Shown: positions 48,201-64,000 of the stretch, piece after piece
Numbering within the stretch: position 1 is the stretch's first letter
How the letters are laid out: each line of letters starts with the position of its first letter
Origin: Candidatus Iainarchaeum sp.
GTDB taxonomy: Archaea > Iainarchaeota > Iainarchaeia > JAGGVJ01
Assembly (NCBI GenBank): GCA_021158055.1
Contig: JAGGVJ010000040.1
Location: forward strand, 4,114-68,113
Length of the DNA: 64,000 nt
Direction of reading: 5' to 3'
Made by a program: the position numbers and the translations under genes
The notes under the pieces: generated by a model
What the model was told of the DNA's origin: nothing
The model's database searches: none
The model's input: the letters and a program-made list of their open reading frames with translations, nothing else

Positions 48201-51200
48201 TCCCAAGGCAAAAGAGTGCTCATGTGAAGTGCGTTTCCTTCACAGGCAGCTGTTTCACCGACATAGCTCGTTTCTACAAAGATACTGAACTGACTGCCTA
48301 TTTCACCATCACGGGCAAAAAACACCGGCTTGAACTTTACTTTGTACCAACCGCATTTCCTAAGTAACTCTTCCGAGTCATAATCATTGTGTGAATCATA
48401 ATCATTGTGTGAATCATAACCATAGTGTGAATCATAATCATAGTGTGAATCATAATCATAGTGTGAATCATAATCATAGTATATGTCTCCACCGGTGCTT
48501 ATTCTACCTGAATTCACCATTTCTCTGTAATCACCGCTCACTATCTGCCCGTTAAAGTAACGTGAAACAACATTGGTTTTTGCCCGTTTCAACGCTTCTA
48601 AAGTCACCCGGTCATCCATCAGGAACAAGTCAACCCCGTTTAATATCCAGTCATCCTGCGGAACAAGACCTGACTGAAGCAACTCTTCAAAAGTGCAGAT
48701 GTTTCTTTTAGATGACCCGCACCCGATATCCCTGATTTTCTTGCCTTCAAATGCTGTCAGTATCTTATCCATGAACCGGTCTGCTTTTTCAATTACATAT
48801 TCAGCGGCCTGCATCCCATCACAGTACCCGTCACTGCAGTCCCCGCTCAAACCTGCTTTTGTCGGAATCGAGACAGTTTTTGTTATCCCGATATCCGGGT
48901 CGCATGAGTGAACCAGATACTCTGTCGTGAAATCGGATGTCTTCAAATCAGAGCCTATTTCCACGTTTATCATTATAAGCTCGCTTAAAATTTCTGTATC
49001 TGAAGATGTTTCACCTGCAATGAAAACACCTTTCTGGAAGCTGTCACTCACTATAGCTGCTCTTTTGGACACTCTTTTCAACCTAAAGTCAAACTGCGCG
49101 GTTTCACCGTCAAAAAGAGACCTTTTTGAACCTTCTGAAAAGTCAATGTACAACCTGAAATCGTTAAGAGGAATGAAATCGACAAACCTGGTTATCCTTT
49201 TGCCGCACTCGTTCTTGATAACAACTGAACTTTTTATTTCATCAAAGTAAGCAGTTGTTGAAACAAAATCAATTGACTCCGAACTGATTACCTTCAGGCA
49301 ACCTTCTTCTTCGGGAACTATTTCCACAATCAAGCCCACTTCCCTTGAAACTGAAGTGACTTTTCCCGGCTTGTTCTTATAATAGACATCTGCGTCGATA
49401 ACAAGAGTCCCGGTCATTCTCCCTGCCTCTCCGCTGTAACCTGAAGCATCAACTTCAATTTCAAAATGAGTTGTGTCTTCCGGTTCAAGCTCATCTATTG
49501 TTGACGATGCTTCAGTCTCGCTCAAATAATTCACATAAATATTCGGGTTGATCTCCCAGTCTTCTGCTTTTTCACTTATCCTAATGTTTTTGAAAGTAAC
49601 CGAACCGCGGTTTTTCAAGACAAGTTTTTCTGCATTGCCGTCCAGTATATCAAGCGATTCCCCCGCCTTGAGCTTTAGCTTTACCTTGTTCTCAACATCA
49701 AGGGCTGCTGCCTCGTCAAGGAACACCACTGCATAGTCAAGCTCTCCTGAAACGTCCTGCGAGCCGTTTTCCCCCCTGAAAACAAGGGTTCCGACAACAT
49801 CATCATCTTCAGCGTTGTTCTCGCTGTCATCCAAAGTGTCTGCCTGGAAAGTCACAAGGACAGTCGCCTTGTTCTCGCCTGAAAGCGAATCAGCTGAAAG
49901 CAATTCTATAACTGTACTTTCTTCTTCACCTGTCCCTTCAATCACCTGGTTTCCGTTGCAGTCAAGGACAAAAATTCCACCGTCAAGATCATTGCTGGAA
50001 TAAGCGACAATGTTTGACAAATCAATCCCACAATTGTTTTTCAAAACGACTTCCATTGAATTGAACGCAGTGTCAAGGTCTTCTGAGCCGACCACAAACT
50101 CTGTCTGCGACGGGGTCACTTCAAGGCATTCCGCAATTACCTGCGCGTCTATTTTCGGCGCGTACAAGAGTTTTATCCTTCCCTGCGCTGTCACATACTC
50201 GTTGTCTTTCACTGCAAATATCTTGATTGTGGCCTCGGCTGACGCGGAATCCGTCGAGTCAGGGAAATAACCTGAAGTGAACGTGAGGTAAGTTGTCTCG
50301 CCAGGCCCGAGCAATCTTGTGATTGATGCGTCGTCGAGCTCCAAGCTGAAATCATCATCCGGAAAGCCCTCGTCGCGTTCAACTACAACCTGCAGGTCAG
50401 TGAGTTTTTTGCTTGAGCTATTTTTTATGGCAAGCTGTTTTGTCGCGGTTTTTATATTAAGGGGAATCTCAATCACAAACGGGTCTTCGTCAATTGCGAT
50501 CGCCGCTTCTTTTCCGACACGCACAAGAATTGTCTCTTCGGCAAAGTGATCTGCTGAAACATTTACTGCAATGACTCCCGAGGCAGGCTCAATTGTGGTT
50601 GCGTAGACGCCGTTTCTTCCGCGGTTTCTCTTGTCTTTTCCTGTAATTGTTATTGTTTTGTTTCCAAGCGGTTTCCCGATGTTGTTGACCAGTTTTATCG
50701 TGGCGTCGGTAACTGCTTCAAAATCTCCCGCGCGAAGCACTGTTATCATAAACTGGGTTTTTTCACCTGCAACAGCCATTTCCGGCTCAACGAAAACACT
50801 GAGCCCCAGTCCCGCAACAACTTTAAGGAACAGCTCTTTTTCAATCAGCACTTCACCTGACCTTTTCACAATTATTTTTACTGAAGCCGAGTTGTTTTCA
50901 GCTGTCGGGACAAACACTGCCTCAAGGCCTGTTCCCCTGTTTTTCCCAAGGCTTTCAAGGTTGACTGCAAGCGCGTGCGCTTCGTCATCAAGCTGTGTCT
51001 GGGTTCCAAGGTAATGGTATGACACAAAGTCAAGCGATGCGTCAGAATTTAAAATTTCCACCTGCAAATCTTCAAGGTCTTGTTTTGCCTGCACTTCGAT
51101 TCCAAGCGAGTAGACCGCGCTCAAGTACGCCTCACTTGCAGTCAGGTCCTTGATTTCTTCCCCGGTTATTGCCCTTGAAAAACCGTAATTCATGCAGATT

Positions 51201-53557
51201 TCCTGCGTGCATTCAACCGTATTTTGCGTCACTGAAAATTCAACGGGTGTGGTGGCTGCGTAAAGCGGCTGTTTTCCTTCAGAGTCAATCAAAGTTCCAA
51301 GTTCTTCGTCAAACGGGCTTCTTTCCATGCCGCCCAGGTTTATGTAAGTCCAGCCCCTGAAATTGAATTTCACTCTCTCGCCCAAAACCACGTTGTCTTT
51401 CACCTGAACTGCAAAGTCCACAACATGCGTTCCTTTCCCGACATCTTTTCCAACCACCTGCACCCACTTGTTCATCTGTCCTGAAAGCGTGGTTCCTGCC
51501 ATGTCAATATCCTGTCCAAGCGGGGGGTTGTGGGTCGTGCCTGAAGACGGTTCTCCCATCGCCTGCATCACTCCCGTGATTGCAACATTGTCTTTTGCTG
51601 AAAAGTCGTTTTCTTCAAGGCCTGTCATCAAAAACAACCCTGCCTCGTCTGACGCGGCGGCCGTGTTCAACGCGACTCTTGCGCGGTACTGCTTGCTTTC
51701 AACAACGCTTTCTACCCTGTTTCCGAACCTGTCGAACAAGCCGATGAAAACCGCGCCCGTGGAATCCGCGGGGCTGAAAAGCTGTACATCTATGCGGTTT
51801 TCTTTTGAAGAGTCAATGTTTATGACATGGGAAAAGTATTTTGCGCTGCCAGGCGATTCAACGACTGCGTAAGCCTGTATGCCTTCAACAACGTCAAACT
51901 CGGCAACCCCATTTGAATCCGTGACAGTCGGCGACGAAAGCTCTTTGCCTAAAACCGTTGCCGCATTGTCAAATAAAATCACGCTTGCTCCTGAAACCGG
52001 GTTTTCTTCTTTTGTCACTTTGACCGTGACTTTTGTCTGCGTTGCGCTTATGTCAATCATTGGTTCCTGCGTGGTCGGAGTTTCCACTGGTTTTGCCACT
52101 CCGACTTTGGAGCCGACGTATGCCTTTGCAATGACTGTCTTGTTGTTCGGAACGTCGCTGAACTCCGCGCAACCGCTTGAACCGGTCAATTCTGACGGGA
52201 TTCCCAGCACTTTTGACGCAGTCTCAAAAAGAACAACCGGCACACCGTTTAACGGTGCCTTGGTGTCTTCTTCGCGGACACACACTCTAAGGGTTGATGT
52301 ATTTTCCTTGGTTGACAGCTCCATTGAAGCCAAAACTGATTCCCCTGCCCCGACATCTGTCCTGACAAACGGGACATAGTTGCCTGAGTAGACAGAAACC
52401 ATGTATTTTTTTGACTTGTCCACAAGAACTTTTCCTGTCCCGTCGATGTCCTGCGATTTCACGAGAACGCCGTCCAGATAAACGTTTACGGCTGCTTCAA
52501 GGGGTGTTCCGGTCATGGTTCTTGCAGTGACGTTTATAAAGTCGCTGTTTGCAAAATCAGCTGTTGAAATAATCATTTCAAGTTTGTTTTCAGCGTTTGA
52601 AAGGACCTGAACGGCTTTTTCAGTCTGGCTCAAGTACTCTTCTTTTGACACCGTCACGTTGTAAAGTCCTGGTATCAGCCCTCTTAAAACTGTTTTTCCG
52701 TCAACGTCGGTCTTTTCAGAAGACGCGAGTTCTGCAACGCCTTTTGGGCGGGCTTCAACCTCCGCTCCTTCAACTGCATCGCCGTTTATGTCTTCAATGT
52801 AAACCAGTAAATCTGCAGGTTCGCTTTCATCGGCTTCAAGGCTTATGGAGAGCTCCTGGTCTGAGTTGAACGTGAATGTTTCGCTTTTTTCCTGATAGCC
52901 CGGGGATGTGAAAACAAGGTCAATGTCTTGTCCCTGCGGAACTATCGCTTCAATTACCCCGTTTTCTTTTATGGTGTATGTTCCAAGGTCTTCTCCTTCT
53001 TTCATTACCTTGACTGTGCCTTCCCTTACAATGCTGTCAAAATCGGTTGTGACTCTCATCACTACTTTCACGTTTGTTTTTTCAAGTTTTGAAAGCGAAA
53101 AATCCTGCTGAAGCGAAGTGAAATAAAAGGATTTGTCAAGGGTTTCGTAGTCATACTTTGTTATCTCTACTGTGCCGTAACTATTGAGCTTGTCGAAATT
53201 TTCTATTGTTGCAATTCCTTTTGAATCGGTTTTTCCGATAAACGAGCTTAAGGTATCCGGGTAGGTTATCCTGACATCAGCCCCTTCAATGGCTGCTCCT
53301 GTTTCCGCATCAACGACTTTTACCTGAAGCGTTCCAGAGGCGGGGGTGCCAAGCATGAAAAACGCGACAAGCCCAATGAAAAAAATCGTCAAAAATAACG
53401 GGAAAACAGGTATGTTCTTGTCTTCAAGCGCGTCTATTACGCGGTAAACAGGGATTCCGTGGTCATCCACAAAATCCATCAAACCAAAAAACTTGTTTTC
53501 CACGCCGTAATAAAAGTCGTTCAAATTGTCTTTAACTGACTTGGATGCCAACTTCAT
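45260..53557 (-). CDS. Giant N-terminally anchored surface protein (2765 aa); paralogous architecture to 38389..44628, with (DYDSHY)n repeat and C-terminal coiled coil
   Basis: N-terminus LNDFYYGVENKFFGLMDFVDDHGIPVYRVIDALEDKNIPVFP + TM, colinear with the N-terminus of the 2079-aa protein. CarbopepD_reg-like repeats (TLQVKVVDAETGAAIEGADVRITY...). HYDYDS tandem repeat. ~450-aa coiled coil. C-terminal LMSWNPAGAGASAG motif shared with the other giant. Confidence 0.8.
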   Translation of the reverse strand: MKLASKSVKDNLNDFYYGVENKFFGLMDFVDDHGIPVYRVIDALEDKNIPVFPLFLTIFFIGLVAFFMLGTPASGTLQVKVVDAETGAAIEGADVRITYPDTLSSFIGKTDSKGIATIENFDKLNSYGTVEITKYDYETLDKSFYFTSLQQDFSLSKLEKTNVKVVMRVTTDFDSIVREGTVKVMKEGEDLGTYTIKENGVIEAIVPQGQDIDLVFTSPGYQEKSETFTFNSDQELSISLEADESEPADLLVYIEDINGDAVEGAEVEARPKGVAELASSEKTDVDGKTVLRGLIPGLYNVTVSKEEYLSQTEKAVQVLSNAENKLEMIISTADFANSDFINVTARTMTGTPLEAAVNVYLDGVLVKSQDIDGTGKVLVDKSKKYMVSVYSGNYVPFVRTDVGAGESVLASMELSTKENTSTLRVCVREEDTKAPLNGVPVVLFETASKVLGIPSELTGSSGCAEFSDVPNNKTVIAKAYVGSKVGVAKPVETPTTQEPMIDISATQTKVTVKVTKEENPVSGASVILFDNAATVLGKELSSPTVTDSNGVAEFDVVEGIQAYAVVESPGSAKYFSHVINIDSSKENRIDVQLFSPADSTGAVFIGLFDRFGNRVESVVESKQYRARVALNTAAASDEAGLFLMTGLEENDFSAKDNVAITGVMQAMGEPSSGTTHNPPLGQDIDMAGTTLSGQMNKWVQVVGKDVGKGTHVVDFAVQVKDNVVLGERVKFNFRGWTYINLGGMERSPFDEELGTLIDSEGKQPLYAATTPVEFSVTQNTVECTQEICMNYGFSRAITGEEIKDLTASEAYLSAVYSLGIEVQAKQDLEDLQVEILNSDASLDFVSYHYLGTQTQLDDEAHALAVNLESLGKNRGTGLEAVFVPTAENNSASVKIIVKRSGEVLIEKELFLKVVAGLGLSVFVEPEMAVAGEKTQFMITVLRAGDFEAVTDATIKLVNNIGKPLGNKTITITGKDKRNRGRNGVYATTIEPASGVIAVNVSADHFAEETILVRVGKEAAIAIDEDPFVIEIPLNIKTATKQLAIKNSSSKKLTDLQVVVERDEGFPDDDFSLELDDASITRLLGPGETTYLTFTSGYFPDSTDSASAEATIKIFAVKDNEYVTAQGRIKLLYAPKIDAQVIAECLEVTPSQTEFVVGSEDLDTAFNSMEVVLKNNCGIDLSNIVAYSSNDLDGGIFVLDCNGNQVIEGTGEEESTVIELLSADSLSGENKATVLVTFQADTLDDSENNAEDDDVVGTLVFRGENGSQDVSGELDYAVVFLDEAAALDVENKVKLKLKAGESLDILDGNAEKLVLKNRGSVTFKNIRISEKAEDWEINPNIYVNYLSETEASSTIDELEPEDTTHFEIEVDASGYSGEAGRMTGTLVIDADVYYKNKPGKVTSVSREVGLIVEIVPEEEGCLKVISSESIDFVSTTAYFDEIKSSVVIKNECGKRITRFVDFIPLNDFRLYIDFSEGSKRSLFDGETAQFDFRLKRVSKRAAIVSDSFQKGVFIAGETSSDTEILSELIMINVEIGSDLKTSDFTTEYLVHSCDPDIGITKTVSIPTKAGLSGDCSDGYCDGMQAAEYVIEKADRFMDKILTAFEGKKIRDIGCGSSKRNICTFEELLQSGLVPQDDWILNGVDLFLMDDRVTLEALKRAKTNVVSRYFNGQIVSGDYREMVNSGRISTGGDIYYDYDSHYDYDSHYDYDSHYGYDSHNDYDSHNDYDSEELLRKCGWYKVKFKPVFFARDGEIGSQFSIFVETSYVGETAACEGNALHMSTLLPWDNLSSEDAAEMKNTVFVIPKNEEDSFKGIVEEIASGLSGTELDYNLLEKDGRVKTSLDVVGGKNVVKLLFRDSANLTKEESELVDILNKDIGYPAYGVIHHDVSKFGSNIFELVIDKNALGDSSEDLNKSIGTAVSAFVEIASGAKPIGCYFGSQSTSKREGDRAKIDSFVITGLTEAPLNAKDAGRNECVFANGNWKIILPEFEGRVEVDKDGRTLIVKDAEALASLIACECTAALISFDTGTGIYGGYKIKYTGEDFTKDVFRDKIHNLRDKENEPAWATCVADVDEKFWGSTFSSDFWGESMLTDDCHSCRPEIRWSGLMTTEDGNEKVMKGDDGVKLRMNIEIKESPTINTCPAMNSACTIVTGVAVARGGAALMSWNPAGAGASAGLFVADQLVDFLVVDEILKVGFDHMAYKNKFKEAGEGFTDISTLTRSPYYTPMIAAGITAGPTAAGAICSYKKLGEEVVESSGKLKKVKGALAQPFRRLYPAIRQFKIQRAVASQVLEPDALDSSGKQLKLLVLGNKNYLDNYNIKKEIAESYKNAAGKWSKYADTLDEIARLEDDISKLDGKVAGLTKERDAILAGMKIDTAGMGDDLVYKAHLDALDTVNKEIDDSKKALKDVLDNLSKTKPAELDVKGLESAFKNANDTMNLNMEQVKGIEETITQNRAALNDLSPRLDDAGHLFKQNKQVLLEGIDEFMTAPGDTLDDMDRKFITDFRDMVNKGDDPAKLADAVSEIKGNSAFSNLTMGYDSALDNVLTSLSDFKKIEIDTSNLKKGIQTLEQGKTNLVKETGELNKLSGDIVKTMDASNKELTVRRELLKEVKDTQKMFSEFEAERVENLKKVNEQFENVWKLQGKIEGGALGKEKLLETQNELTARKGQLETDLRSLADEGVNFSDEGDDVTDALLKNTEKHSEFVAKSNEMTKGVEETEKKLESLKKVKRINPLGSAAIAGACWALDVYIAQHDNCIVTFEEV

Positions 53558-53729: not shown

Positions 53730-55526
53730 TTAACAACTTTCGCTTGCTGAGCCGGTGCACATGTCACACGACGATACTGACATGAAGTTGTCAACACACT
53801 GGAGATCAAGCCCTTCAACATAAGGCAACGTGCTCCTTGTTGCCCCCTTCCATTCTTCCTTGAGGTCTGCCCTTACACTGTCACTTACACTGTTTTCCCT
53901 TGCCAGTGAAACGCAGAACACAAACGGGACAGAAATGCCCCCGTCATCGGATGTCGTTGAACTCATCGGGGCTTCCATCGGGTGATAAATAATCTGGTTT
54001 TCTTCCGGTTCAAAATGAGTTGTCCCGTAACCCCCCGGTATTCCAAACCCCTTATCCACAATGGTAAAACAGGCATAAGCAGCTTCCGGAACCTGCGCGC
54101 AAAGCGCCGGCTTCAGGTTTACCTGGTCTCCAAAAGGATTTGAAATAATGCCTGATTCAGGGTACTGCACATAAGAAGTGCTTCTTGAGCACCCGTCAAA
54201 AACACCTGCTCCGTTGTCAACAGTGTACCTGAAGTACTTTGTGGGGAAAACCACTTTTTCAAGGAAACCTAAAGAATGCCTGTTTTTACTTGAATTCAGC
54301 CCTTCGCGAATAAAAAACTGCGCGCCTGAAAAAACACCATCAATTTTCCCCCTGTACTCAAGAGTGTCAAAATACAACGGCGCAAATTCAATGTTGCCGG
54401 CACTTGACTTCAGTTCCGAATTATTGCCTGAAAGAACACCCCCTATTTTTTCTGAAACACTGTCCATGTAACTTTCGGCAGTTATCTCGCCTGAAGCATA
54501 AACATCGTCGTATTCTGAATCAAGGCATTTTCTTTCAAAATCCGTTTCAAAATACGGGGGGGTTTTGGGGTCATAGTGCACCCACACCGGCAAAGAAACT
54601 TCCGAAGAATCCGAAACAGCCACTGAAATTTCTTTTGTGCAGTCAAGCCGTGATTTTTTTCCAAAATACTCTGCTTCACCATAAATTTTGCAATCCACAG
54701 GATAATCCGACCCCCTCGTCATGCAATCGCATCCCTGTGCGCCTGTTGATTCCAGGTCGCACAAGCCCCACGGTTTTATTTTACCAGGCCCCTCCAGATT
54801 CAGAATTTCGTCCTGGATCGCAAAGGCAATGTCTGCTGCTTTCATAAACCTTATCGGAACAGGGACAATCAGGCTTCCCTCCGGGATCACAGAACTGACG
54901 CTTTCTTCCCCAGTGAGATTGTTTGTCATGACTATCCGCGCAATCTCATCGTTGCTTAAGTCGGCCGGGGGCTTTATTTCCACTGCAAACGAACCGTCTT
55001 TTGAACTGAAACAATCATCTGGAAAAACAAAAATATTATATCTTGTGAGGCTGCCGACCAATCCAATACTATAGTCCCCGATATTTACAAGGTGTTCTGA
55101 ATCAGTATCTTTAAACTCTCCAACCACGTCAAAAACGCTTGAAGTCATATTTGTCAATAAACTTGTCCTGACACCGGATTCAAAAAAATCCTTCACGACC
55201 GTGCAAAAAGTGCCGCGGTCAGTTGAAACAAAAATGGCTTCTTCAAGGTCGTTGTTAAAATACTTCTTCAAAAACATATTGTGGGTCTGGGCCTTAAACT
55301 GAAAAATCACCGTGTGAATCGCATCCATCCTTGCAAAATCAAGAGTCGCCGACTCCTTCAGAGAAGACTGGTAGTCAACAATGACACTGACCCTGTTTTT
55401 TTCAGTGTTTATTATGTTTACTATCATTACAAGAGCAATTACAAGAATCACCATCCCGACAAGCGGGGTAAACAATGTAAACCCTTTTTTCATCTTTTGC
55501 GACACTGACATACCAGGCAACCAGGT
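53730..55526 (-). CDS. Large (~598 aa) cysteine-rich protein with class III (prepilin-like) signal peptide; candidate filament-associated adhesin
   Basis: From ATG at 55526: MKKTWLPGMSVSQKMKKG|FTLFTPLVGMVILVIALVMIVNII, a charged N-terminus, K-G, then a ~22-aa hydrophobic stretch, which is the archaeal prepilin pattern. More than 20 Cys. The listed ORF extends to 55802 only by reading through a 21-bp tandem duplication and would overlap the neighbouring gene. Confidence 0.6.
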   Translation of the reverse strand, partial: TWLPGMSVSQKMKKGFTLFTPLVGMVILVIALVMIVNIINTEKNRVSVIVDYQSSLKESATLDFARMDAIHTVIFQFKAQTHNMFLKKYFNNDLEEAIFVSTDRGTFCTVVKDFFESGVRTSLLTNMTSSVFDVVGEFKDTDSEHLVNIGDYSIGLVGSLTRYNIFVFPDDCFSSKDGSFAVEIKPPADLSNDEIARIVMTNNLTGEESVSSVIPEGSLIVPVPIRFMKAADIAFAIQDEILNLEGPGKIKPWGLCDLESTGAQGCDCMTRGSDYPVDCKIYGEAEYFGKKSRLDCTKEISVAVSDSSEVSLPVWVHYDPKTPPYFETDFERKCLDSEYDDVYASGEITAESYMDSVSEKIGGVLSGNNSELKSSAGNIEFAPLYFDTLEYRGKIDGVFSGAQFFIREGLNSSKNRHSLGFLEKVVFPTKYFRYTVDNGAGVFDGCSRSTSYVQYPESGIISNPFGDQVNLKPALCAQVPEAAYACFTIVDKGFGIPGGYGTTHFEPEENQIIYHPMEAPMSSTTSDDGGISVPFVFCVSLARENSVSDSVRADLKEEWKGATRSTLPYVEGLDLQCVDNFMSVSSCDMCTGSASESC

Positions 55527-55539
55527 TTTTTTCATTTTA

Positions 55540-55581
55540 ACACCTTTATCTTCAAAAACACTTTGTTTGTCTTCAAAAACA
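55540..55581. repeat. 21-bp tandem duplication (tcttcaaaaacactttgtttg / ...gcttg) in the 5' leader of the pilin-like gene
   Basis: Seen directly. Produces the spurious KQSVFEDKQSVFEDK in the extended ORF. Confidence 0.85.
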
Positions 55582-55608
55582 CTTTGCTTGCACCTTACAT
55601 AAATTGCT

Positions 55609-56250
55609 TTACCTGTCCCTTGCTTTCTGCAAAAACTGTTTTGCCGAAAAACCTGCTTTTTCAAGCCAACCGATATACCTTTCAAGCCACCCAAGGTACC
55701 ATGCGGCATAAAACACAAACGTAAACACAAAAAGGCTTGCCCTGAAAAGCGTATTGTGGGTGAAATCCGCTGCTTCCCAGCCAAACCACACCCCGGTTGC
55801 AAGAGTCAATGCAATGCGGACCGGGTTAAACAAAAGAACTGCAAAAAAGCCAAGCCCCGCGCCGACTGCCCTGCTTTTCAGAGTCCTGTCAGTGCTTGAA
55901 AAGACAGCCGCAAAAAGAACAGCTATTTCAAGGTCGCCTGAGCAAATCCTTGAAATCACTGCCGTGAACGGGTAAAACAGGTCAGAAAAAATCAACGGCG
56001 CAGCCCCTGAAAAAATACCGGGCGTCATTTCTGCCCTGATTCCCAAAACCGCAAGCACTGCAACTGCAGAAACCGCGCTGAATGCCTGCAAAAGAGGGGT
56101 GAGCAAAAGGGAAATCAAAAACGAGACCGCTAAAAAAAGAACTGAAAATAATGCCGTGAACTTTGCTGCCCGGATTAACTCAAAACGAAGAATATTTATT
56201 GGAATACGCACTTTTTTCACCTTATGGGTGAAATGGATAAGGGCAAACAT
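55609..56250 (-). CDS. Exosortase/archaeosortase-family membrane protein (213 aa, short form)
   Basis: Polytopic membrane protein with SRICSGDLEIAVLF (the family's conserved C-S-G active-site Cys region) followed ~38 aa later by FNPVRIALTL (conserved N-x-x-R) and then H (FTHN). The ATG at 56250 overlaps the ATPase start head-to-head, so one of the two starts is probably misplaced. Confidence 0.55.
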   Translation of the reverse strand: MFALIHFTHKVKKVRIPINILRFELIRAAKFTALFSVLFLAVSFLISLLLTPLLQAFSAVSAVAVLAVLGIRAEMTPGIFSGAAPLIFSDLFYPFTAVISRICSGDLEIAVLFAAVFSSTDRTLKSRAVGAGLGFFAVLLFNPVRIALTLATGVWFGWEAADFTHNTLFRASLFVFTFVFYAAWYLGWLERYIGWLEKAGFSAKQFLQKARDR

Positions 56251-58518
56251 GTAATTAAAAGTGAGGGTGGCAAAAAAACCCTTGTAATCGATTACAGGAA
56301 CTCAAAAACCGGGGCAGACATCGCAGAATACGCCGACTGCATGGAACAAGTGCTCTCTCTTTTGAGAACAAACGACGCTGACTTAGTGGTTTTGGCTGAC
56401 CTGTATGAAAGGGTCTACGACGAAAAGCAGACAAAAATGCTCAAAGAAATAGCTGACCTGGCAAATTTGTTTGAAACAGAAAACCTTTGGGGCTACACAT
56501 ATCTCGGAAACGTAAAAACAGAAAGCGAAGTGACTTTAAGCGAGAGGCACAACCTGGTGGTCAAAATTGCCCACGACCTGCTTTTGCGCGACCCGATAAA
56601 GGCATACCTGACTCTTCTTGACACCCTGAAAAAAGAAAAAATGAGAGCAAACGCAGGAGGAAAAACCTATCCCGTCGTGTTCCTGAAAACACTGGTGTTT
56701 GTCAAAAACAAGCTTGAGGCAACCAATCTTATTTCCGTCACAAAAAACCTGATTTTAAGGCTTCACAAAGTCCCGACGGGACGAGGTTTTTATCACTCGT
56801 TTTTTGACGCGCAGATAAAGCCGTCTTTTGTGGGTTCAAGGCTTCTTTTCAAAACCGACGAAAAAGTTGAACTGGTTGACCAGTACAACGTTCTTGACGC
56901 GGAAGTGCGGGTCTACAGGCACCCTGAAAAAATCGCTTTAATGTATTACATCAACCCGCCCGAGTACTCGCTTTCGCCTGAAAAATACTTCATCTTGACA
57001 AAAACAAAAGAAGTCGTTGCAAAATACAGGCCCACAAACACAGAATTTTCAGATGCTTCCCAGTCAAGGAAATACTTCGAGCACATTTACCAGGCAACCA
57101 TAAACGACATTGCAAAAGAAAACAGCATTTCCATCTCACCGCGGGAAAAAGAAGCGCTTGCAAAAATAGTGGCGCGCTACACAATCGGCTACGGCGTGCT
57201 TGAACTCCTGTTGTCTGACAGGAAACTGACAGACGTTTACCTTGATGCGCCTCTCGGAACCAAACCTATTTATGTTGTTCACGGCGAATACGGGCAGTGC
57301 CAGACAAACGTAATCTTCACAAACGAAGAAGCCCGCTCAACAGTATCCCGGCTCAGGGCGCTTTCAGGCAGGCCTTTTGACGAAGCCCACCCTGTCATGG
57401 ACTTTAACCTATCCTCGCTCCAGACAAGGGTCGCAGTCATCGGCCAGCCCCTCAGCCCGCACGGCATAGCGTTTGCGTTGAGGCTTCACAAGACCACTCC
57501 CTGGACTTTGCCCCAGTTCATTGACGCGCACATGATTGACCACCACACAGCAGGCCTTTTGAGCTTTCTCGTGGACTCAAAGGCATCCATGCTCATAACC
57601 GGCTCAAGGGGTTCGGGAAAAAGCTCCATGCTTACCGCGCTCATGCTTGAGATCCTTCAAAACCTGAGAATCATCGTCCAGGAAGACACCCTTGAAATTC
57701 CCGCGCCGTACCTCAAAAGCATCGGCTACAACATCCAGCAGCTCAAAACCCAGAGTGCGATTTCCGTGGGAAGAACCGAAAACGAAGTAAGCCCTGACGA
57801 GGCATTGAGAACAGCGCTTCGTCTGGGTGACTCTGTCCTGATCGTGGGTGAAGTGAGATCAAAAGAAGCAAGAGTGCTTTACGAGGCAATGCGTATCGGC
57901 GCGGTGGGAAACGTTGTCATGGGGACCATTCACGGCGAAAGCGCTTATTCCGTGTGGGACAGGATTGTAAACGACCTTGAAGTGCCGAACACTTCCTTCA
58001 AGGCAACCGACATGGTCCTTGTCCAGGCCCCTGTTAGATTCAAGGGCTCGCTCAAACGGCACAGGAGAGTAATCCAGCTGACTGAAGTGAAAAAGCACTG
58101 GCAAAACGACCCTGCCGCAGAAGAGGGGCTTCTTGACCTGCTCTCTTTTGACGCTTCAAAAGACGGGTGGGACCTGTTAAAGGACAACTTCAAGGACTCC
58201 GAGTACTTCCCGAAACTCAAGCGCACAACCGGCATGAGCATTGAGGAAATATGGAAGGACATAAAACTGCGCGGAGAATCAAAAAAATACCTTGTCGACT
58301 CAAAAAACAAATTTGAAATCCCTGCTCTTCTGGAAGCCGAAAACACTGTTCCGATGAACAACAAATTACTGCTGATGGCTGAAGAAATGCGCAAATCCGG
58401 CGGAGGCATGGACTACGACAAGCTTCTTGAATCATGGAAAAAATGGGTTGACAACCGGTATGTGAAAGAAATAATTGCAAAAAAAAGGCTTGTTTCAACA
58501 CGTAAAATCAAAAGGTGA
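56224..58518 (+). CDS. Type IV pilus/archaellum-type secretion ATPase (FlaI/TadA/GspE/VirB11 superfamily) with ~250-aa N-terminal extension
   Basis: 764 aa. Walker A LITGSRGSGKSSMLTAL, Asp/Walker B box SVLIVGEVRSKEA and His box VVMGTIHGESA. Typical family members are ~450-550 aa. Confidence 0.85.
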   Translation: MGEMDKGKHVIKSEGGKKTLVIDYRNSKTGADIAEYADCMEQVLSLLRTNDADLVVLADLYERVYDEKQTKMLKEIADLANLFETENLWGYTYLGNVKTESEVTLSERHNLVVKIAHDLLLRDPIKAYLTLLDTLKKEKMRANAGGKTYPVVFLKTLVFVKNKLEATNLISVTKNLILRLHKVPTGRGFYHSFFDAQIKPSFVGSRLLFKTDEKVELVDQYNVLDAEVRVYRHPEKIALMYYINPPEYSLSPEKYFILTKTKEVVAKYRPTNTEFSDASQSRKYFEHIYQATINDIAKENSISISPREKEALAKIVARYTIGYGVLELLLSDRKLTDVYLDAPLGTKPIYVVHGEYGQCQTNVIFTNEEARSTVSRLRALSGRPFDEAHPVMDFNLSSLQTRVAVIGQPLSPHGIAFALRLHKTTPWTLPQFIDAHMIDHHTAGLLSFLVDSKASMLITGSRGSGKSSMLTALMLEILQNLRIIVQEDTLEIPAPYLKSIGYNIQQLKTQSAISVGRTENEVSPDEALRTALRLGDSVLIVGEVRSKEARVLYEAMRIGAVGNVVMGTIHGESAYSVWDRIVNDLEVPNTSFKATDMVLVQAPVRFKGSLKRHRRVIQLTEVKKHWQNDPAAEEGLLDLLSFDASKDGWDLLKDNFKDSEYFPKLKRTTGMSIEEIWKDIKLRGESKKYLVDSKNKFEIPALLEAENTVPMNNKLLLMAEEMRKSGGGMDYDKLLESWKKWVDNRYVKEIIAKKRLVSTRKIKR

Positions 58519-58522
58519 AAAA

Positions 58523-60730
58523 GTGCGCGAAAGAAAAAAACAAAACCAGGCAAACAGAAAAACCCGCGACACCGAAAACATTGATGTCAAGCTCCCGGGA
58601 TCACTGATTTACGGGGAGCGCGAAACAGATCCGGTCACAAAAACCGCTGATTCAAAAAAACCAGGAAAAAGCGGTTTTGTGAAATTCTGCAAGTGGAGCT
58701 ACAGGCGCATAAAATCAAAAAACTCCAAATTTGACGAAAAATACAGGCAGGCAATTGACTTTCTCGGCTGGAACCTCACTGCAGACGAGTTTGCTTCAGG
58801 ACAGAAAATGTCTATGGTCCTTGGTTTTGCATTGTCTGCAGTGATTGGACTGTGCGCATCCTACTTTGGCCTGATTTCATTATCAGGCGGCATTTCAATG
58901 GACAATCTTCCATTCCTTGGCATGCTTGCGGTGATTCCGATGGCCGCTTCGGCGATGGTTGTCAAAATGCCTTTAAACGCTGCCGAAACAGAAAAAATGA
59001 ACTCCATGACTTACGTTCCTGAAATCGTAAATTACCTTGTCATGAGCATGAAGCTGTCGCCAAACCTTGAAAAGGCAATCCAGTTTGCTGCAGAGCACGG
59101 GCGGGGAAAGATCGCCGACGATTTCAAAAAGCTGTTGTGGGACGTTGACATCGGAGTATACAACACTGTTGAGGAAGGCCTTGACGACCTCGCGTACAAA
59201 TGGGGGGACTACAGTTCTGTCCTGAAACACGCCTTGATGCAGATTCGCGCTTCAGTGATTGAGGCAAACGATGCAAGGCGCCTTGCGTTGCTTGACAAGG
59301 CGGTAGCCGATGTCATTGAAGGAATCAAGGCGGAAATGAGCACTTACTCGCGAAAACTGCACGCGCCCGCGATTTACCTTTATTACCTCGGGGTCCTCCT
59401 GCCGCTTATGCTTGTGATCATCCTGCCTATCGGCTCCGTGTTTACCGGGGCAGGCCTTGCTGACAGGAACCTCTTGTTTGTGCTCTACAACATAATCATA
59501 CCGACAGCCACTTTCCTTTTTGCAAGAAACCTCCTCAAAAAAAGACCCCCGACTTACACCCCGCCGGTCATCCCCGATGACTTTCCGGGAATCCCCCCAA
59601 AACACAAGTTGTTTTACGGGAAAAACAAAAAAACATTCCCTGTCCTGGCACTTGCAATAATTGCTGCTTTGGCTGTTCTCCTGTTTTCATTCATGGCAAA
59701 CAACACAATTACTCAGCTTAGCTTTTCAGGCACCGACTTTGGCATCGACCCTTTTCACATGGTCACGCTTGAAGAGGCAAAAAACAACATCTGGGGAACT
59801 TTCAACGACACCGGGTTTGAATGGGGCGGAATAAAATATGTCACTCCGATCTGGATGATCTACGGAGTTCTTTTATCGGTTGTTTCCTTTATTTCAGTTT
59901 ACCTTTACTTTGACTCAAAATACAAAAAAGAAGCCCAAGACCACATCAAAAAACTTGAGGACGAATTCAACGACGCGATTTACGTGCTTGCCTCAAGGCT
60001 CGGTGAAAACAGGCCCATGGAAGAAGCCCTTTCCCACTCTGTCAAGTTTTTGGGTCCGGGTTCTCTTGTCGGGACCGAGATTTTTGCAACAATCACCAAA
60101 AACATATCAATGATGGGCCTGACCTTGCGATCCGCAATCTTTGACTCAAATTACGGGGCGCTGAAACATGTTCCCTCCAACCTGATCCAAAGCGCAATGA
60201 CCATCTTAAGCGACTCGGTAGAGCTCGGGACAAACGTTGCGGCGCGCTCGATTATGTCTCTTTCCTCGCAGATCCGGGATTCAAAGAAAATCGACGAGAA
60301 CTTGCGCAAAATGCTTGAGGATCTGACTTCCATGATGAACTCAATGGCGATAATGATTGCCCCCATGGTTCTTGGAATCACCACCGCGCTGCAGAAAATC
60401 GTGCTGAATGCCCTGACCAATATCACAAAAGCGACAAGTCCTGGCGGAGCGAGCGCTGCAATGGGGACAGGCGGAATGGGCAATATGCTCTCAGGCGCAG
60501 GCAGCGCCCAGCAGGCAGCAAACATAATCAACCCCACTGATTTCCTTTTGATAATCGGGTTTTACGTGATTGAGCTTGTCATCATTTTGATGTATTTCAC
60601 CATGAACATCCAGGAAGGGGACAACAAAATAATAGTCAAGATGGCCATTGCAAAAATCCTGCCTGTTGCAATCATATTTTTCATAATAAGCACTCTTCTT
60701 GCAAACAATTTGATAGCAAACGCGGGTTGA
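58523..60730 (+). CDS. Type IV filament platform membrane protein (TadC/FlaJ/PilC-like, T2SS-F type), unusually long
   Basis: ~735 aa. Cytoplasmic basic N-terminus then many TM helices. Immediately downstream of the ATPase and upstream of the pilin genes. The listed ORF starts at TTG 58475, inside the ATPase. GTG 58523 (5 bp after the ATPase stop) or ATG ~58810 are alternatives. Assignment rests mainly on context and topology. Confidence 0.6.
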   Translation: MRERKKQNQANRKTRDTENIDVKLPGSLIYGERETDPVTKTADSKKPGKSGFVKFCKWSYRRIKSKNSKFDEKYRQAIDFLGWNLTADEFASGQKMSMVLGFALSAVIGLCASYFGLISLSGGISMDNLPFLGMLAVIPMAASAMVVKMPLNAAETEKMNSMTYVPEIVNYLVMSMKLSPNLEKAIQFAAEHGRGKIADDFKKLLWDVDIGVYNTVEEGLDDLAYKWGDYSSVLKHALMQIRASVIEANDARRLALLDKAVADVIEGIKAEMSTYSRKLHAPAIYLYYLGVLLPLMLVIILPIGSVFTGAGLADRNLLFVLYNIIIPTATFLFARNLLKKRPPTYTPPVIPDDFPGIPPKHKLFYGKNKKTFPVLALAIIAALAVLLFSFMANNTITQLSFSGTDFGIDPFHMVTLEEAKNNIWGTFNDTGFEWGGIKYVTPIWMIYGVLLSVVSFISVYLYFDSKYKKEAQDHIKKLEDEFNDAIYVLASRLGENRPMEEALSHSVKFLGPGSLVGTEIFATITKNISMMGLTLRSAIFDSNYGALKHVPSNLIQSAMTILSDSVELGTNVAARSIMSLSSQIRDSKKIDENLRKMLEDLTSMMNSMAIMIAPMVLGITTALQKIVLNALTNITKATSPGGASAAMGTGGMGNMLSGAGSAQQAANIINPTDFLLIIGFYVIELVIILMYFTMNIQEGDNKIIVKMAIAKILPVAIIFFIISTLLANNLIANAG

Positions 60731-60738
60731 TCTCAAAA

Positions 60739-61221
60739 ATGAAAAAAACAACAATGCCTGGTTTAAGAGGACAGGAATTTGACATTTTCAAAATACTTCT
60801 CGCAGTCGCTTTCGCGCTTGCCTTGACTGCCATACTTTCCGGTTTTGTCAACAGCTTGTGGGACGAGACCTGTGAGTTTGACAGCAACAAGATAGTGAGC
60901 GCAATCCACGCGGCAAAAGCTGTTCCTGGAGAGGTTTTGAAGATTGAAGACGTCTGCTTTAACAAGGGGAGCAAAATCACTGCCGAATCTTACGCGATTC
61001 AGGCAAAGCTTGTCGGGCGCGACGGGGGATGCATAAAATTCAGCGGCTGCCCAAAACAGGCAACGTGCCCGAACGAATTTGAAGCAGAATTCAACGCAAG
61101 CAACACAAAAGACTTTTTCGTTGTGTGCGGGCGAAGCACTGACCCCGTGTGTGTTTTCGAGCTTCCTGAAAGCGAGTATTATGTGTCGGGATGCACGATT
61201 TACCTTGACGGAAAACCCTGA
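60739..61221 (+). CDS. Pilin-like protein with class III signal peptide (160 aa, Cys-rich)
   Basis: MKKTTMPGLRG|QEFDIFKILLAVAFALALTAILSGF is a prepilin-type N-terminus. 8 Cys in the mature part. Confidence 0.7.
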   Translation: MKKTTMPGLRGQEFDIFKILLAVAFALALTAILSGFVNSLWDETCEFDSNKIVSAIHAAKAVPGEVLKIEDVCFNKGSKITAESYAIQAKLVGRDGGCIKFSGCPKQATCPNEFEAEFNASNTKDFFVVCGRSTDPVCVFELPESEYYVSGCTIYLDGKP

Positions 61222-61395
61222 CAAAAAAACAATAACAATAAATAATATCAAACACAATTCAGTATTCACTAAGAATATTAATCAAATCCAGTATTTGCTA
61301 AAAATATCAATCAATGTCAATACACTAAAATATTACAAAAATATTAAGATATTATCAAAAAAGATATTATAAAAATCTTCAGAAAAGGTGATTCA

Positions 61396-61821
61396 ATGAA
61401 AAACGCTTTGAAAGGACAGGCATTCGACACATTCAAACTGTTGATCGCGGCAATTGTTGCGATTTCCATTCTTGGGGTGATGATGGGAATTATCGGCGGC
61501 ACAACACTGCCCGGTTCAGACCCGAACCACGAGATAAAGAGCAAATTAAGCAGCGCAGTGATAAACGCCGGAAACACCGTGACCACATCCACAATAAAAT
61601 TCAAATTCGGTGACACCTACTGCATCACGGCCTTGAAAGGAAACTCGGGCCTTGACGACGACCAGATTGATTTTGACGTTCAGCACAACGGAATAGAAAT
61701 AAGCCCGGATGACTCCAAATGCATACAGGCAAAAAGCACTGATGTAAACGGGAGAGCAGCAATCAAATGCGACCCGAGCACCGCCACGTGCACAATAACA
61801 ATCAAACCGGCATTGAACTGA
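61396..61821 (+). CDS. Pilin-like protein with class III signal peptide (141 aa)
   Basis: MKNALKG|QAFDTFKLLIAAIVAISILGVMMGI, the same GQxFDxFK(I/L)L motif as the preceding gene. 5 Cys. Confidence 0.7.
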   Translation: MKNALKGQAFDTFKLLIAAIVAISILGVMMGIIGGTTLPGSDPNHEIKSKLSSAVINAGNTVTTSTIKFKFGDTYCITALKGNSGLDDDQIDFDVQHNGIEISPDDSKCIQAKSTDVNGRAAIKCDPSTATCTITIKPALN

Positions 61822-61876
61822 AGCGAAAGCTTGAACAAAACTGAAGCAAAAGCTTAACAAAAAAGAGGTATGAAAA

Positions 61877-62176
61877 ATGAAAAAAGGAGACAGCTCATGG
61901 GGTGCGCTTTACCTGTTGATTGTGCTTGTGATTGCAGCCGTGCTCATAACCACTGTAATAAAGCCCATGTTCAGCCAGTCGCAGGAAGCCGTGACTTCAA
62001 AAAAACTCCCTTCCTCAATGGGATTGATCGGACTGGCTGCCGTTTTCAGCAAAAGGCAGGAAAACACTGTTCTGGAAAAGCGCGCTGAAGACACAAGCAC
62101 ACCCCCAAAAAAAAACCTTGTTCAAACCTGTTTCACAGCATTTTCAAGTGTGCCAAATGCCAGCGCACAAGGGTGA
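61877..62176 (+). CDS. Small pilin-like protein (99 aa), possible minor pilin
   Basis: MKKG|DSSWGALYLLIVLVIAAVLITTVI hydrophobic N-terminus after K-G. Weaker match than its neighbours. Confidence 0.45.
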   Translation: MKKGDSSWGALYLLIVLVIAAVLITTVIKPMFSQSQEAVTSKKLPSSMGLIGLAAVFSKRQENTVLEKRAEDTSTPPKKNLVQTCFTAFSSVPNASAQG

Positions 62177-62180
62177 ACCG

Positions 62181-62756
62181 ATGCGCCGCCTGCACGGACA
62201 AGAAGAAGCGCCGATTGAGCTTCTGGTCGGGATAATCATGTTCATAATGGTCTCTGTCCTTGCCATCCAGGTAACGACAAGCATAAACAATTCCATCTGC
62301 AGCGAAAAACTGAACAAGGCACAGATTGACATTTCCTCAAACCTCAAAAGTGCGCTTACAGGCTCAGAATTCACTGTGCAGACCTTTTCGGTTGACATCC
62401 CAAGCTGTCCTGAAAAAAAAATAAAAAGCCTGAACATAGAAAAAATAACCGACCCCAACATCTGCCAGATTTACTGCCGGCCGACCAAAAACACCTGCTG
62501 GATGACAGTGCTTGAAGTGCACGGCGAAACAGAAGGGGAAATAGAAAAAGAATTCATGTGCATCAACATCTCGCCTGAAACAGAAATAATCCCGGAAGAC
62601 GACGAAGACCTGTGCAACTGGGACAAAATGAGGCAAAAAACAGGCATAACAAGCACAACACCTCTTGAGCAGTTAAACCTGGGCCCCGCCTACTACAAAT
62701 TCACTTTCAAAAGAGACACCGGAATGACCCCAAAAATAAAGGTGTGCATTGAATGA
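62181..62756 (+). CDS. Pilin-like protein with class III signal peptide (191 aa, Cys-rich)
   Basis: From the internal ATG: MRRLHG|QEEAPIELLVGIIMFIMVSVLAI. 8 Cys. The listed ORF start (62118) would overlap the previous gene. Confidence 0.6.
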   Translation: MRRLHGQEEAPIELLVGIIMFIMVSVLAIQVTTSINNSICSEKLNKAQIDISSNLKSALTGSEFTVQTFSVDIPSCPEKKIKSLNIEKITDPNICQIYCRPTKNTCWMTVLEVHGETEGEIEKEFMCINISPETEIIPEDDEDLCNWDKMRQKTGITSTTPLEQLNLGPAYYKFTFKRDTGMTPKIKVCIE

Positions 62757-63430
62757 AACTTGCCAAAAAACAACGCGGGATAATGCTCTGGACAATGTCA
62801 AAAATCACTTTGTTTATTTTCATGCTCGGCCTTGTCACTGTATTCTACCACTTCCTTATCTACACAAACACGATTACCCTGCAGGAAAACGCAAAAAACA
62901 CTGCAAAAAACATGATTTCAAAACTCGACGAAGTGCGCTTCAGCACCATGACCTGCAAAGAAGAAGTGATTCCCATTGATTACAGGTTTCGCGCAGGGGA
63001 AACCGACTTGTCTTACCTGATAAGAATTGAAAAAACAAAGCTAAAAATCGGAGATACGCAAGAGGAAAAAAGGCTTTCGGTTCAGATCAGAAGCTCAAAA
63101 GACAAAGAACTGCTTGGAGCATCAGACACGATGCTTGCGGAAAACGAAAAAATAAGCTTTTACAAATGCCCCTACAGATTCGGTTCGGCAGACGACGACT
63201 TCTTTTGCCAAAAGGAACTGGAAAAAAGCAATGGGAATGCATCACTTGACATCTACCCAAGTGAAAAAAACGAAAAAAACAACAATCTTCAAAGCTCTTA
63301 CATCATTATAAAAAAAGGATTTTTTAAAGGCGACGAAACAAAACAAGGGATTTGTGTCGTGGACTGTTTTGACACAGACCAGAGAACCTGCCTGAAAGCA
63401 ATAAGGACAGTTGATGCGTGTGAATGCTAA
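62753..63430 (+). CDS. Pilin-like protein with class III signal peptide (225 aa, Cys-rich)
   Basis: MKLAKKQRG|IMLWTMSKITLFIFMLGLVTVFY. 7 Cys. ATGA overlap with the upstream gene. Confidence 0.6.
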   Translation: MKLAKKQRGIMLWTMSKITLFIFMLGLVTVFYHFLIYTNTITLQENAKNTAKNMISKLDEVRFSTMTCKEEVIPIDYRFRAGETDLSYLIRIEKTKLKIGDTQEEKRLSVQIRSSKDKELLGASDTMLAENEKISFYKCPYRFGSADDDFFCQKELEKSNGNASLDIYPSEKNEKNNNLQSSYIIIKKGFFKGDETKQGICVVDCFDTDQRTCLKAIRTVDACEC

Positions 63431-63998
63431 AAGCCAAAAGCCAAAGACTCCAAAGGGGTTTATCGGACCGATTGGTTTTGACCTGCCAAGCATAATGCCA
63501 ATCGTTTTTGCCATAATAGTTTTTTTCAGTGCCGTGAGCTACTCGTACACCACCGTGAACGAAAAAAACAACGTTCTTGACTCAATAGAATCATCCATCA
63601 AAATAGCCGATATCTTAAAAGGAAACTCTTACCTGTTCTTCGACGCCACAGATTCAGGCGCAAAAAACAAGTTTGCCTCAAACTGCGAAAAAGCAGTTAA
63701 CATTGCGCAGTCAAAAAACATAAACTTCGCGGCCACTTTTGTAAAGCTTGACTCAAGCTCAAGCATTGAATGGCTGATTGAAAACAAGGAAAGCGAAATT
63801 GACTCCTGCACAACAGCAGACGGCAAACACCTTTGCTGGTGCGGCTTTTCCCCAAAAAAATTTGATTCAAACCTGTCAAAACAATTCTGGAGCATTTCTT
63901 TTCCCGTAACAGTTGACGTAAAACCGCCCGGTTCCGGTCCGGAGGACATTTACCCGCAAAGTTACCTCAGGAAAATAATTGTGGTGGTGTGGAAGTGA
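63414..63998 (+). CDS. Pilin-like protein with class III signal peptide (194 aa)
   Basis: MRVNAKSQKPKTPKG|FIGPIGFDLPSIMPIVFAIIVFFSAV. 5 Cys. The stop codon falls at the window end. Confidence 0.6.
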   Translation: MRVNAKSQKPKTPKGFIGPIGFDLPSIMPIVFAIIVFFSAVSYSYTTVNEKNNVLDSIESSIKIADILKGNSYLFFDATDSGAKNKFASNCEKAVNIAQSKNINFAATFVKLDSSSSIEWLIENKESEIDSCTTADGKHLCWCGFSPKKFDSNLSKQFWSISFPVTVDVKPPGSGPEDIYPQSYLRKIIVVVWK

Positions 63999-64000
63999 TT

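Follow-up and report, generated by a model that had tools for sequence, protein, structure and literature searches.

What does a sorting enzyme do in a pilus locus in which no open reading frame (ORF) ends in the hydrophobic helix and basic tail of a canonical sorting signal? The question is raised by positions 55609..56250 (minus strand) of a 64-kb stretch of contig JAGGVJ010000040.1 from Candidatus Iainarchaeum sp. (the whole stretch is called here the window), which encode a minimal protein of the archaeosortase family, of 213 amino acids (aa) if translated from the ATG at 56250, or of 203 aa if translated from the GTG at 56220, the start called by the Joint Genome Institute (JGI). An earlier reading made from the DNA letters alone (the sequence-only reading) had drawn attention to it. 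We conclude with high confidence that the ORF encodes an intact enzyme of the exosortase/archaeosortase superfamily, and that the clade it represents is hard-wired to a cluster for a type IV filament (TFF) and giant adhesins. As to its role, we propose, with a probability of about 0.45, a dedicated enzyme that sorts surface proteins of the filament apparatus by the usual chemistry of the family, the most conservative client in the related lineages being a protein with an ALPWxP-type tail.

Identity of the Enzyme

The protein scores 33.8 bits against the generic model TIGR04178 (exo_archaeo; E 3.2e-8, residues 99-184), for which the curated cut-off is 23 bits, and the same model is matched by all of the aligned relatives (60/60). 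The C, N-x-x-R and H pattern pointed out by the sequence-only reading is in place, with Cys103 in the motif ICSGDLE (codon 55942-55944), Asn142 and Arg145 in NPVR (Arg codon 55816-55818), and His165 in ADFTH (codon 55756-55758; all in the 213-aa numbering). In the alignment of the 60 relatives, the Cys, a Glu (+5), the Asn-x-x-Arg, the His, a Phe and a Trp are invariant, and the invariance of the Cys, Arg and His argues for catalysis. That reading had let its identification hang on the Cys and Arg, and it had named CPBP/CAAX or rhomboid-type proteases as the alternative. The window protein matches no Pfam family at E<=10, including these two and Peptidase_A24 (PF09721 is matched by relatives, not by the window protein itself), and its NCBIfam matches are to exo/archaeosortase models plus a weak one to SecE (E 0.37).

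While the generic model is passed, no model of a named subfamily is. The window protein scores 20.2 bits against ArtD (cut-off 125), 20.1 against XrtH (cut-off 86) and 17.2 against ArtB (cut-off 150), and it has no match to the ArtA (TIGR04125) or ArtE (TIGR04124) models at E<=10; the ArtA model matches, weakly, 1 of the 60 relatives. The lowest E-value to any named model across the 60 relatives is 2.1e-17, to ArtE; when 20 relatives were scored one by one, the ArtE model (cut-off 95) gave 30.6 bits at most. Neither the window sortase nor any of these 20 relatives (21 proteins in all) reaches a named-subfamily cut-off (ArtA–F, Xrt*), and the window sortase thus belongs to a clade without a name, made up of enzymes of ~160–220 aa. 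When 1.84 billion cluster representatives were searched exhaustively, relatives at E<=1e-3 were recovered in 157 clusters, nearly all with 160-220 aa, and the members are named at NCBI only as 'exosortase/archaeosortase family protein' or 'hypothetical.' The small size had been presented as a departure from ArtA; the protein is indeed shorter, but this is no anomaly, as the models of ArtB, ArtD, ArtE, XrtH, XrtM, and XrtX span only 150-168 positions.

An AlphaFold 2 model built on the 60-sequence alignment (predicted local distance difference test score 94.4, predicted template modeling score 0.84) has a long N-terminal helix (8-58), a small three-stranded element (64-88), helices 91-108, 114-146, and 148-175, and a C-terminal amphipathic helix, and four transmembrane (TM) helices are predicted to form the core. 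In the 203-aa numbering, C93 stands at the start of helix 91-108, N132 and R135 in the outer third of helix 114-146, and H155 near the start of helix 148-175, so that the Cys, Arg and His lie at the ends of three consecutive TM helices. No solved structure resembling the protein by sequence or by fold was found. The N-terminus, a conserved D-R loop and the C-terminal tail are basic, which would place these three residues on the outer face of the membrane. The same orientation for Cys103, Arg145, and His165 is suggested by a database protein (P0063, described below) that joins a sortase C-terminal tail to a prepilin signal starting in the cytoplasm, and it would agree with the extracellular active site of ArtA, in which Cys173, Arg214, and Arg253 are essential (PMC9263693). 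The C-terminal tail in the window contains a 21-nt tandem duplication (55659-55700, YLGWLERYIGWLEK) that P0002 and P0003, the closest homologs, lack.

A Conserved Filament Cluster

Searches of JGI metagenomes and of a collection of species-representative genomes, together with exact look-up, yielded 39 related loci, about 30 of them distinct; the genomes were scanned with a 10-sequence sortase alignment, and synteny was mapped by tblastn with the proteins neighboring the sortase in the window. The organism labels on these loci are all DPANN or 'archaeon.' In every locus with a 5′ flank (34/34), a type IV filament assembly ATPase lies beside the sortase and divergent from it, directly abutting it in most, with a spacing of 0-40 nt or an overlap across lineages; the placement of the sortase in a pilus locus by the sequence-only reading is thus well founded. 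The window ATPase (56224..58518, plus strand; FlaI/TadA/VirB11 superfamily) scores 69.6 bits against PF00437 (T2SSE) and 140 bits against the FlaI model, below the cut-off of 550 for the latter, and its counterparts in the other loci are 52-60% identical. Beside the ATPase, in most loci, is a polytopic platform protein of the TadC/FlaJ type (58523..60730, plus strand; 735 aa in the JGI call, the longest ORF starting from 58475), with about 10 hydrophobic segments in the window; its orthologs are 39-44% identical and ~670-770 aa long, and one of them weakly matches PF00482 (T2SSF).

On the other side, on the sortase strand, a large prepilin-like protein is encoded directly 3′ of the sortase (53730..55535, minus strand; start at 55535, at 55511 according to JGI, or at 55493), with the N-terminus ...KMKKG|FTLFTPLVGMVILVIAL. 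It is followed by a giant surface protein of 2,765 aa (45260..53557, minus strand), whose acidic leader of ~45 aa ends in KN|IPVFP before a TM segment, and by a second giant of 2,079 aa with the same type of leader (38389..44628, minus strand; SKN|VPSFP and TM). The platform, the prepilin-like gene with its KGF signature, and a leader-bearing giant occur in nearly all loci with enough flank, including those labeled Micrarchaeota, Diapherotrites, and 'Nanobdellati.' The arrangement holds even in more distant subgroups of the sortase, where one or two genes are inserted (the Diapherotrites-labeled L012, the Micrarchaeota-labeled L014, and L016); the one clear exception is L010, in which the prepilin-like protein is present and the giant is absent. 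This synteny is maintained at 30-48% sortase identity across different phylum-level labels, which would be hard to explain unless the sortase were functionally coupled to the cluster.

Coupling of this kind might mean that the protein is not a sorting protease at all and acts as a structural subunit or as a substitute prepilin peptidase, a suggestion that draws on the direct contact with the ATPase gene and on the lack of a Peptidase_A24 match among the scanned ORFs of the window. We consider it highly improbable. The invariant Cys, Arg and His argue for catalysis and are not the pair of Asp residues of the A24 enzymes, and they are predicted to face outward, while prepilins are cleaved at the cytoplasmic face (PMC4858521); on this predicted topology the role of substitute prepilin peptidase is rejected. 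In addition, the cultured micrarchaeon Mia14 has a FlaK-like peptidase elsewhere in its genome (PMC5498576). An ORF in the window with about 7 hydrophobic segments (28784-29755) was considered as a prepilin peptidase and rejected, as it has no Pfam or NCBIfam match.

Candidate Clients

The sequence-only reading had found no C-terminal TM segment with a basic tail in the large secreted proteins, and this can now be extended to all ORFs of the 64-kb window, none of which ends in this way; PGF-type tails are likewise absent from the window. Nor do the complete giants and prepilin-like proteins of the other loci have a C-terminal helix and basic tail. In 492 kb of related DNA, a single recurrent family carries a tripartite C-terminal signal, and its gene sits at the outer margin of the pilus cluster in each of three lineages (L004/L021; L007/L038; and L017, L018, L020, L022, L025, and L029). 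The frames are open to the edges of the loci (L004 1-2268; L007 1-2049; L017 2-1753; L018 3-1796; the same position in L020, L022, L025, and L029), so that the proteins have at least 580-755 aa. They end in a Thr/Gly-rich linker, the motif A-[AQ]-L-P-[WG]-x-P, a 15-residue hydrophobic helix, and an Arg/Lys-rich tail, and contain no Pfam domains. The signal has no name as yet, as it matches many sorting-domain models only weakly and below their cut-offs (PEP-CTERM, Loki-CTERM, Heimdall-CTERM, MYXO-CTERM, and GVDTG); one isolated 42-aa tail has a marginal match to the LPXTG anchor (16.5 vs. 15.9 bits, E 0.01).

It is on this family that the preferred reading builds. The sortase would serve one or a few surface proteins of the filament apparatus, as an outward-facing Cys protease/transpeptidase that cuts at a short signature motif beside a membrane-embedded helix, and the cut client would be released or re-anchored. 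In the relatives, the likeliest client would be the cluster-encoded protein with the A-[AQ]-L-P-[WG]-x-P motif, the helix, and the Arg/Lys tail; in the window organism, the client would lie beyond the available sequence, or its role would be taken by the giants with their A[IL]MSWNP sites. Family membership, the conservation of the catalytic residues, and the synteny are direct observations, while the topology, the catalysis, and the identity of the client are all deduced here from sequence and model. A dedicated sorting enzyme and its few clients tend to be encoded together (Haft; bioRxiv 10.1101/2023.06.07.544157), a tendency that fits the ALPWxP protein and also the prepilin-like protein and the giants beside the sortase.

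Several results weigh against this proposal. The ALPWxP protein was found in only three lineages, and in the loci without it that have full 10-kb flanks no other C-terminally anchored ORF occurs within 10 kb. Members of the family were sought with a profile, and none was found in the window, in the locus that extends it (L039, from the same organism, reaching 2.2 kb past the window end), or in the remaining loci, and the 64 kb plus these 2.2 kb contain no canonical client. Moreover, the genes that are universally beside the sortase, those for the prepilin-like protein and the giants, carry N-terminal and not C-terminal signals. The earlier suggestion that the substrates are encoded elsewhere is nevertheless strengthened: a canonical tripartite signal does occur in the clusters of three related lineages, but none is seen in the sequence available from this organism.

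If the clients are elsewhere, they could also be quite unconnected with the filament. A housekeeping sortase would act on unlinked surface proteins, an S-layer protein for example, and its place in the cluster would reflect co-regulation or genomic inertia. Enzymes of the ArtA type do serve many unlinked substrates (PMC6098224), and nothing canonical lies near the sortase gene in the window. On the other hand, synteny that persists at 30-48% sortase identity, down to a start junction of 0-40 nt or an overlap, is not expected of inertia, and the canonical signals in the 492 kb were seen only in the cluster itself. We therefore hold the housekeeping role to be improbable.

More consideration is due to the immediate neighbors. 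The prepilin-like protein is 257-937 aa long, keeps the N-terminus [KR]G-F-S-[LI]-F-T-P-[LM]-[VI]-G in most loci, and is encoded on the sortase strand, often from 29 nt past the sortase stop or overlapping the sortase gene. In P0063 (1,102 aa), a sortase domain (residues 26-195) is fused to a prepilin-like protein with the signal '...SKG|FYAVTPFLG' through a repetitive, low-complexity linker (KREQGSGMERKG..., with LKRGMNSKG present twice). This apparent natural fusion, which could alternatively be a read-through in the gene model, supports a functional link between the sortase and the prepilin-like protein. The giants of the related loci (1,700–2,800 aa) are encoded 3′ of the prepilin-like gene and can be orthologous over 1,000-2,000 aa, as they are between the window, a Diapherotrites-labeled metagenome-assembled genome, and an unlabeled metagenome contig; for the 2,765-aa window giant, the homology to giants of other phylum-level lineages extends over 1,000-1,900 aa. 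Their best-conserved part is the acidic leader of ~35-45 aa with the hydrophobic helix directly after it (consensus Y.K.EDKW[YF]DLLD..D.KG[IV]PVY...[DE].[KA]G[IV]P.[LF]P), which looks like a class III signal with a long leader. The two window giants (N-termini at 53258-53557 and 44380-44628) have Lys-Asn before [IV]-P-x-F-P, where the relatives have Lys-Gly or Ala-Gly, and an Asn at −1 would be unusual if a prepilin peptidase removed the leader.

The clients could then be non-canonical, namely the adjacent KGF-prepilin-like protein, the giants, or both, held in the membrane by their class-III-like N-terminal helices and cut or ligated at the outer face, for example to be released from the helix or coupled to the filament or to lipid. 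Theirs are the only co-directional genes beside the sortase in nearly every locus, often at a distance of 29 nt or overlapping; in both proteins, conservation is highest in the N-terminal signals; the fusion joins one of them to the enzyme; and many loci have no canonical client nearby. Against this, the motifs KG|FSLFTP and KG|IPxxP lie at the cytoplasmic end of the helix, while the catalytic residues are predicted to face outward, and no conserved motif was seen at the outer end of the helix of the giants. To our knowledge, no exosortase or archaeosortase uses an N-terminal signal. The absence of such cases is consistent with the literature on the family (PMC6098224). In our view, non-canonical clients of this kind are the main alternative to the preferred reading, and on the whole an unlikely one. 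A broader formulation, that the clade comprises the first exo/archaeosortases to act on type IV filament components, processing or coupling the giants, the prepilin-like protein, or both during or after extraction by the TFF machinery, is doubtful enough to be offered here as speculation.

The giants might, alternatively, be cut in their C-terminal parts. The sequence-only reading had singled out a conserved C-terminal MSWNP module as a candidate signal. ALMSWNP occurs at residue 2162 of the 2,765-aa giant and AIMSWNP at residue 1939 of the 2,079-aa giant, and A[IL]MSWNP is the sole thing that the C-terminal parts of the two have in common. When the 17,812 7-mers of the window were ranked with a 7-column profile built solely from the ALPWxP signal of the relatives, with lineages weighted equally, these sites came first (tied) and third, so in this respect the suggestion fares well. 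There is also a precedent in ArtA, which can use a tripartite signal away from the C-terminus (HVO_0405; PMC9263693). However, the top score is shared by an unrelated AVIPAYP; after the motif, the 2,765-aa giant has no convincing helix (maximum 19-residue hydropathy 1.52) and the 2,079-aa giant no hydrophobic segment; no basic cluster follows directly in either; and the motif is missing from eight other giants. With no BLAST-level homology between the C-terminal regions of the giants, the term 'module' is not warranted. Cleavage of the window giants at A[IL]MSWNP thus strikes us as improbable. The C-terminal 660 aa of the 2,765-aa giant were considered as an ALPWxP homolog and rejected (best E 0.1; the family profile finds nothing).

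Relation to Known Systems

ArtA of Haloferax volcanii (HVO_0915) shares with the window sortase the superfamily signature, a polytopic membrane architecture, and the conserved Cys and Arg, but it has ~300 aa (the figure given by the sequence-only reading), as opposed to about 200, and it is a stand-alone housekeeping gene, whereas the window sortase belongs to a pilus operon in a window that encodes no PGF-CTERM proteins. ArtB, ArtD, XrtH, and XrtX are closer in size, with models of 150-168 positions to which the clade has weak full-length similarity (17-43 bits), scores that remain far below the cut-offs of 86-170 bits. Their cognate signals, VPXXXP-CTERM for ArtB and, less certainly, PIP-CTERM for ArtD and IPTLxxWG-CTERM for XrtH, were not seen.

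ArtE of Methanococcus maripaludis (MMJJ_17200; TIGR04124) is another short archaeosortase, so far uncharacterized, with a model of 153 positions, and the literature covered reports no substrate for it. Its deletion abolishes natural transformation, which complementation restores, and the study also says that transformation requires components of a type IV-like pilus (PMC10133366); MMJJ_17200 is not listed among the pilus genes in that study. This is the only experimental link that we found between a short archaeosortase and a pilus-dependent function. It is a lead and not a proof for the window sortase, as the latter is not an ArtE by the NCBIfam cut-off.

Among more distant systems, the class C sortases of Gram-positive bacteria are Cys transpeptidases encoded in pilus operons with their pilin and adhesin clients. 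They resemble the window locus in arrangement only, being of an unrelated fold and family, and their pili are built by the sortase itself from clients with a C-terminal LPXTG, while the window locus has a type IV ATPase and platform. In gene content, the locus resembles the archaeal TFF loci of 'system 1' or clade 1 (Epd-type), which also combine an ATPase and long platform protein(s) with many minor pilins and with large proteins of adhesin-like type, among them DUF2341 (PMC4858521); the single platform gene of ~735 aa in the window is a difference. Extra membrane proteins in such loci are mentioned in a 2016 survey of archaeal type IV pili and in a 2026 TFF preprint (PMC4858521; bioRxiv 10.64898/2026.04.22.720090), the preprint places system 1 in some DPANN, and one Micrarchaeota pilus locus was assigned to clade 1 in the Mia14 paper (PMC5498576). 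The word 'sortase' is absent from the searchable text of both the survey and the preprint, and the Mia14 supplements contain no exosortase/archaeosortase entry, their single 'sortase' match being arCOG00830, 'Sortase or related acyltransferase.'

For DPANN archaea, physical contact with a host is a necessity, and little is known of the molecular apparatus behind it. The cluster described here is a conserved module of an ATPase, a platform, several pilins, a sortase, a large prepilin-like protein, and giant adhesins, found under Micrarchaeota, Diapherotrites, and other DPANN labels, and the position of the sortase in a pilus-like and giant-adhesin cluster suggests that its clade helps to build the host-contact apparatus. 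If the sortase matures this apparatus, the reach of the exosortase/archaeosortase family would extend from sorting linked to the S-layer and to extracellular polymeric substances to sorting linked to pili, and there would be a mechanistic clue to why Methanococcus needs ArtE for natural transformation. If, more specifically, the clade acts on filament components, it would be the archaeal counterpart of sortase-assembled pili and one of the core components of the DPANN host-attachment apparatus, and the need for ArtE would be explained. The candidate signals to test are the A-A-L-P-W-x-P C-terminal signal, the MSWNP sites of the giants, and the two conserved N-terminal signals.

The Start Junction

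From its longest ORF, the sortase overlaps the ATPase ATG (56224) head-to-head by 27 nt, an overlap correctly observed in the sequence-only reading and taken there as a sign that one of the starts was misannotated. With the JGI starts (GTG 56220 for the sortase, ATG 56224 for the ATPase), 3 nt separate the two genes. A comparison of the junction (56220..56250 in the window) across 15 loci speaks against misannotation. In several relatives (L003 5583-5594, L024 805-816, L033 9962-9973, and L018 9980-9991), the plus strand reads ATG-N6-CAT, so that each gene's ATG is the complement of the fourth codon (His) of the other, and the genes overlap by 12 nt. The window ATG at 56250 is the exact complement of the matching ATPase His codon (56248-56250), and is thus positionally equivalent to the sortase start of the relatives. 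The overlap being conserved among relatives, it is not evidence of an annotation error, and the head-to-head arrangement is a conserved state of the cluster.

In the group of L017, the sortase start codon is GTG, complementary to CAC (His). The ATPases of L017 (~9976-9991), L020, L022, L025, L028, L029, and L031, a sediment lineage, have ACG (Thr) where the relatives have ATG, and no canonical in-frame start occurs upstream of the ACG before a stop in this group, so that these ATPases would have either a non-canonical start or a start elsewhere. Relatives have an AT-rich box (CTATTAATAAATA) at 35-46 nt upstream of their sortase start; read on the opposite strand, this box codes for YLLID, a motif of the ATPase, and it might be a TATA box within a coding sequence. 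The tightness of the junction is a small separate puzzle in archaeal gene expression.

Other Features of the Locus and Its Host

Six small proteins with class III (prepilin-type) N-termini are encoded downstream of the platform gene, spanning 60739..63998 on the plus strand; they are called by JGI in L039 and have homologs in related loci, where several small proteins with class III signals likewise succeed the platform gene. They lie at 60739-61221 (RG|QEFDIFKILL), 61396-61821 (KG|QAFDTFKLLI), 61877-62176, 62157-62756 (HG|QEEAPIELLVG), 62753-63430, and 63414-63998 (KG|FIGPIGFDLPSI). Just past window base 64000, a gene convergent on these pilin genes (L039 1-1482) encodes a product that has N-terminal TM segments and a C-terminal zinc ribbon, as well as a long low-complexity region of charged character.

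The spacer of 74 nt between the sortase stop and the prepilin-like gene contains 2.2 copies of a 21-bp direct repeat (55545..55590; Tandem Repeats Finder score 78), which may act as an internal promoter or a regulatory site. The 2,765-aa giant consists of beta-sandwich repeats and a coiled-coil-rich C-terminal region of ~600 aa, with matches to CarboxypepD_reg, Big_1, bMG3, and SpaA, and an 18-nt tandem repeat within it (48378-48480; 5.7 copies, 96% matches) encodes (S-H-Y-D-Y-D)n, which may serve as a length-variable linker. Directly after the second giant, a Cys-rich protein of 212 aa with a lipobox-like N-terminus (…VLLSG|C; 37734-38372, minus strand) may be an archaeal lipoprotein of the same operon. 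A secreted protein of 1,933 aa (22563-28364, minus strand) is encoded farther away, some 10 kb beyond the nearer giant (38389) and some 27 kb from the sortase; it has four DUF2341 domains and a LamG domain, as well as a fibrinogen-C-like match. Adhesins of the DUF2341 type are tied to clade 1 archaeal pilus loci in the survey by Makarova et al. (PMC4858521), and are said to be expanded in Micrarchaeota.

As to the host, the window codes for a split RpoB, RpoA′, ribosomal protein S7, and, from its translation, an apparent DNA polymerase. Its RpoB′ is 93% identical to a partial protein labeled 'Candidatus Diapherotrites archaeon' and 55-60% identical to proteins labeled Micrarchaeota, Diapherotrites, Fermentimicrarchaeum, Burarchaeum, and Gugararchaeum. 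Judging from the RNA polymerase and ribosomal gene content and these identities, the window is chromosomal DNA of a DPANN archaeon. In the Micrarchaeota loci, a conserved series of six to seven small multi-TM proteins (74-140 aa) is encoded right after the giant (L003 13394-15915, L006 16771-18294, and L007 18597-20525), with conserved tails that include ...YSPEL[ML]RLLGG and ...VKRKYVGPESIYPEKM.

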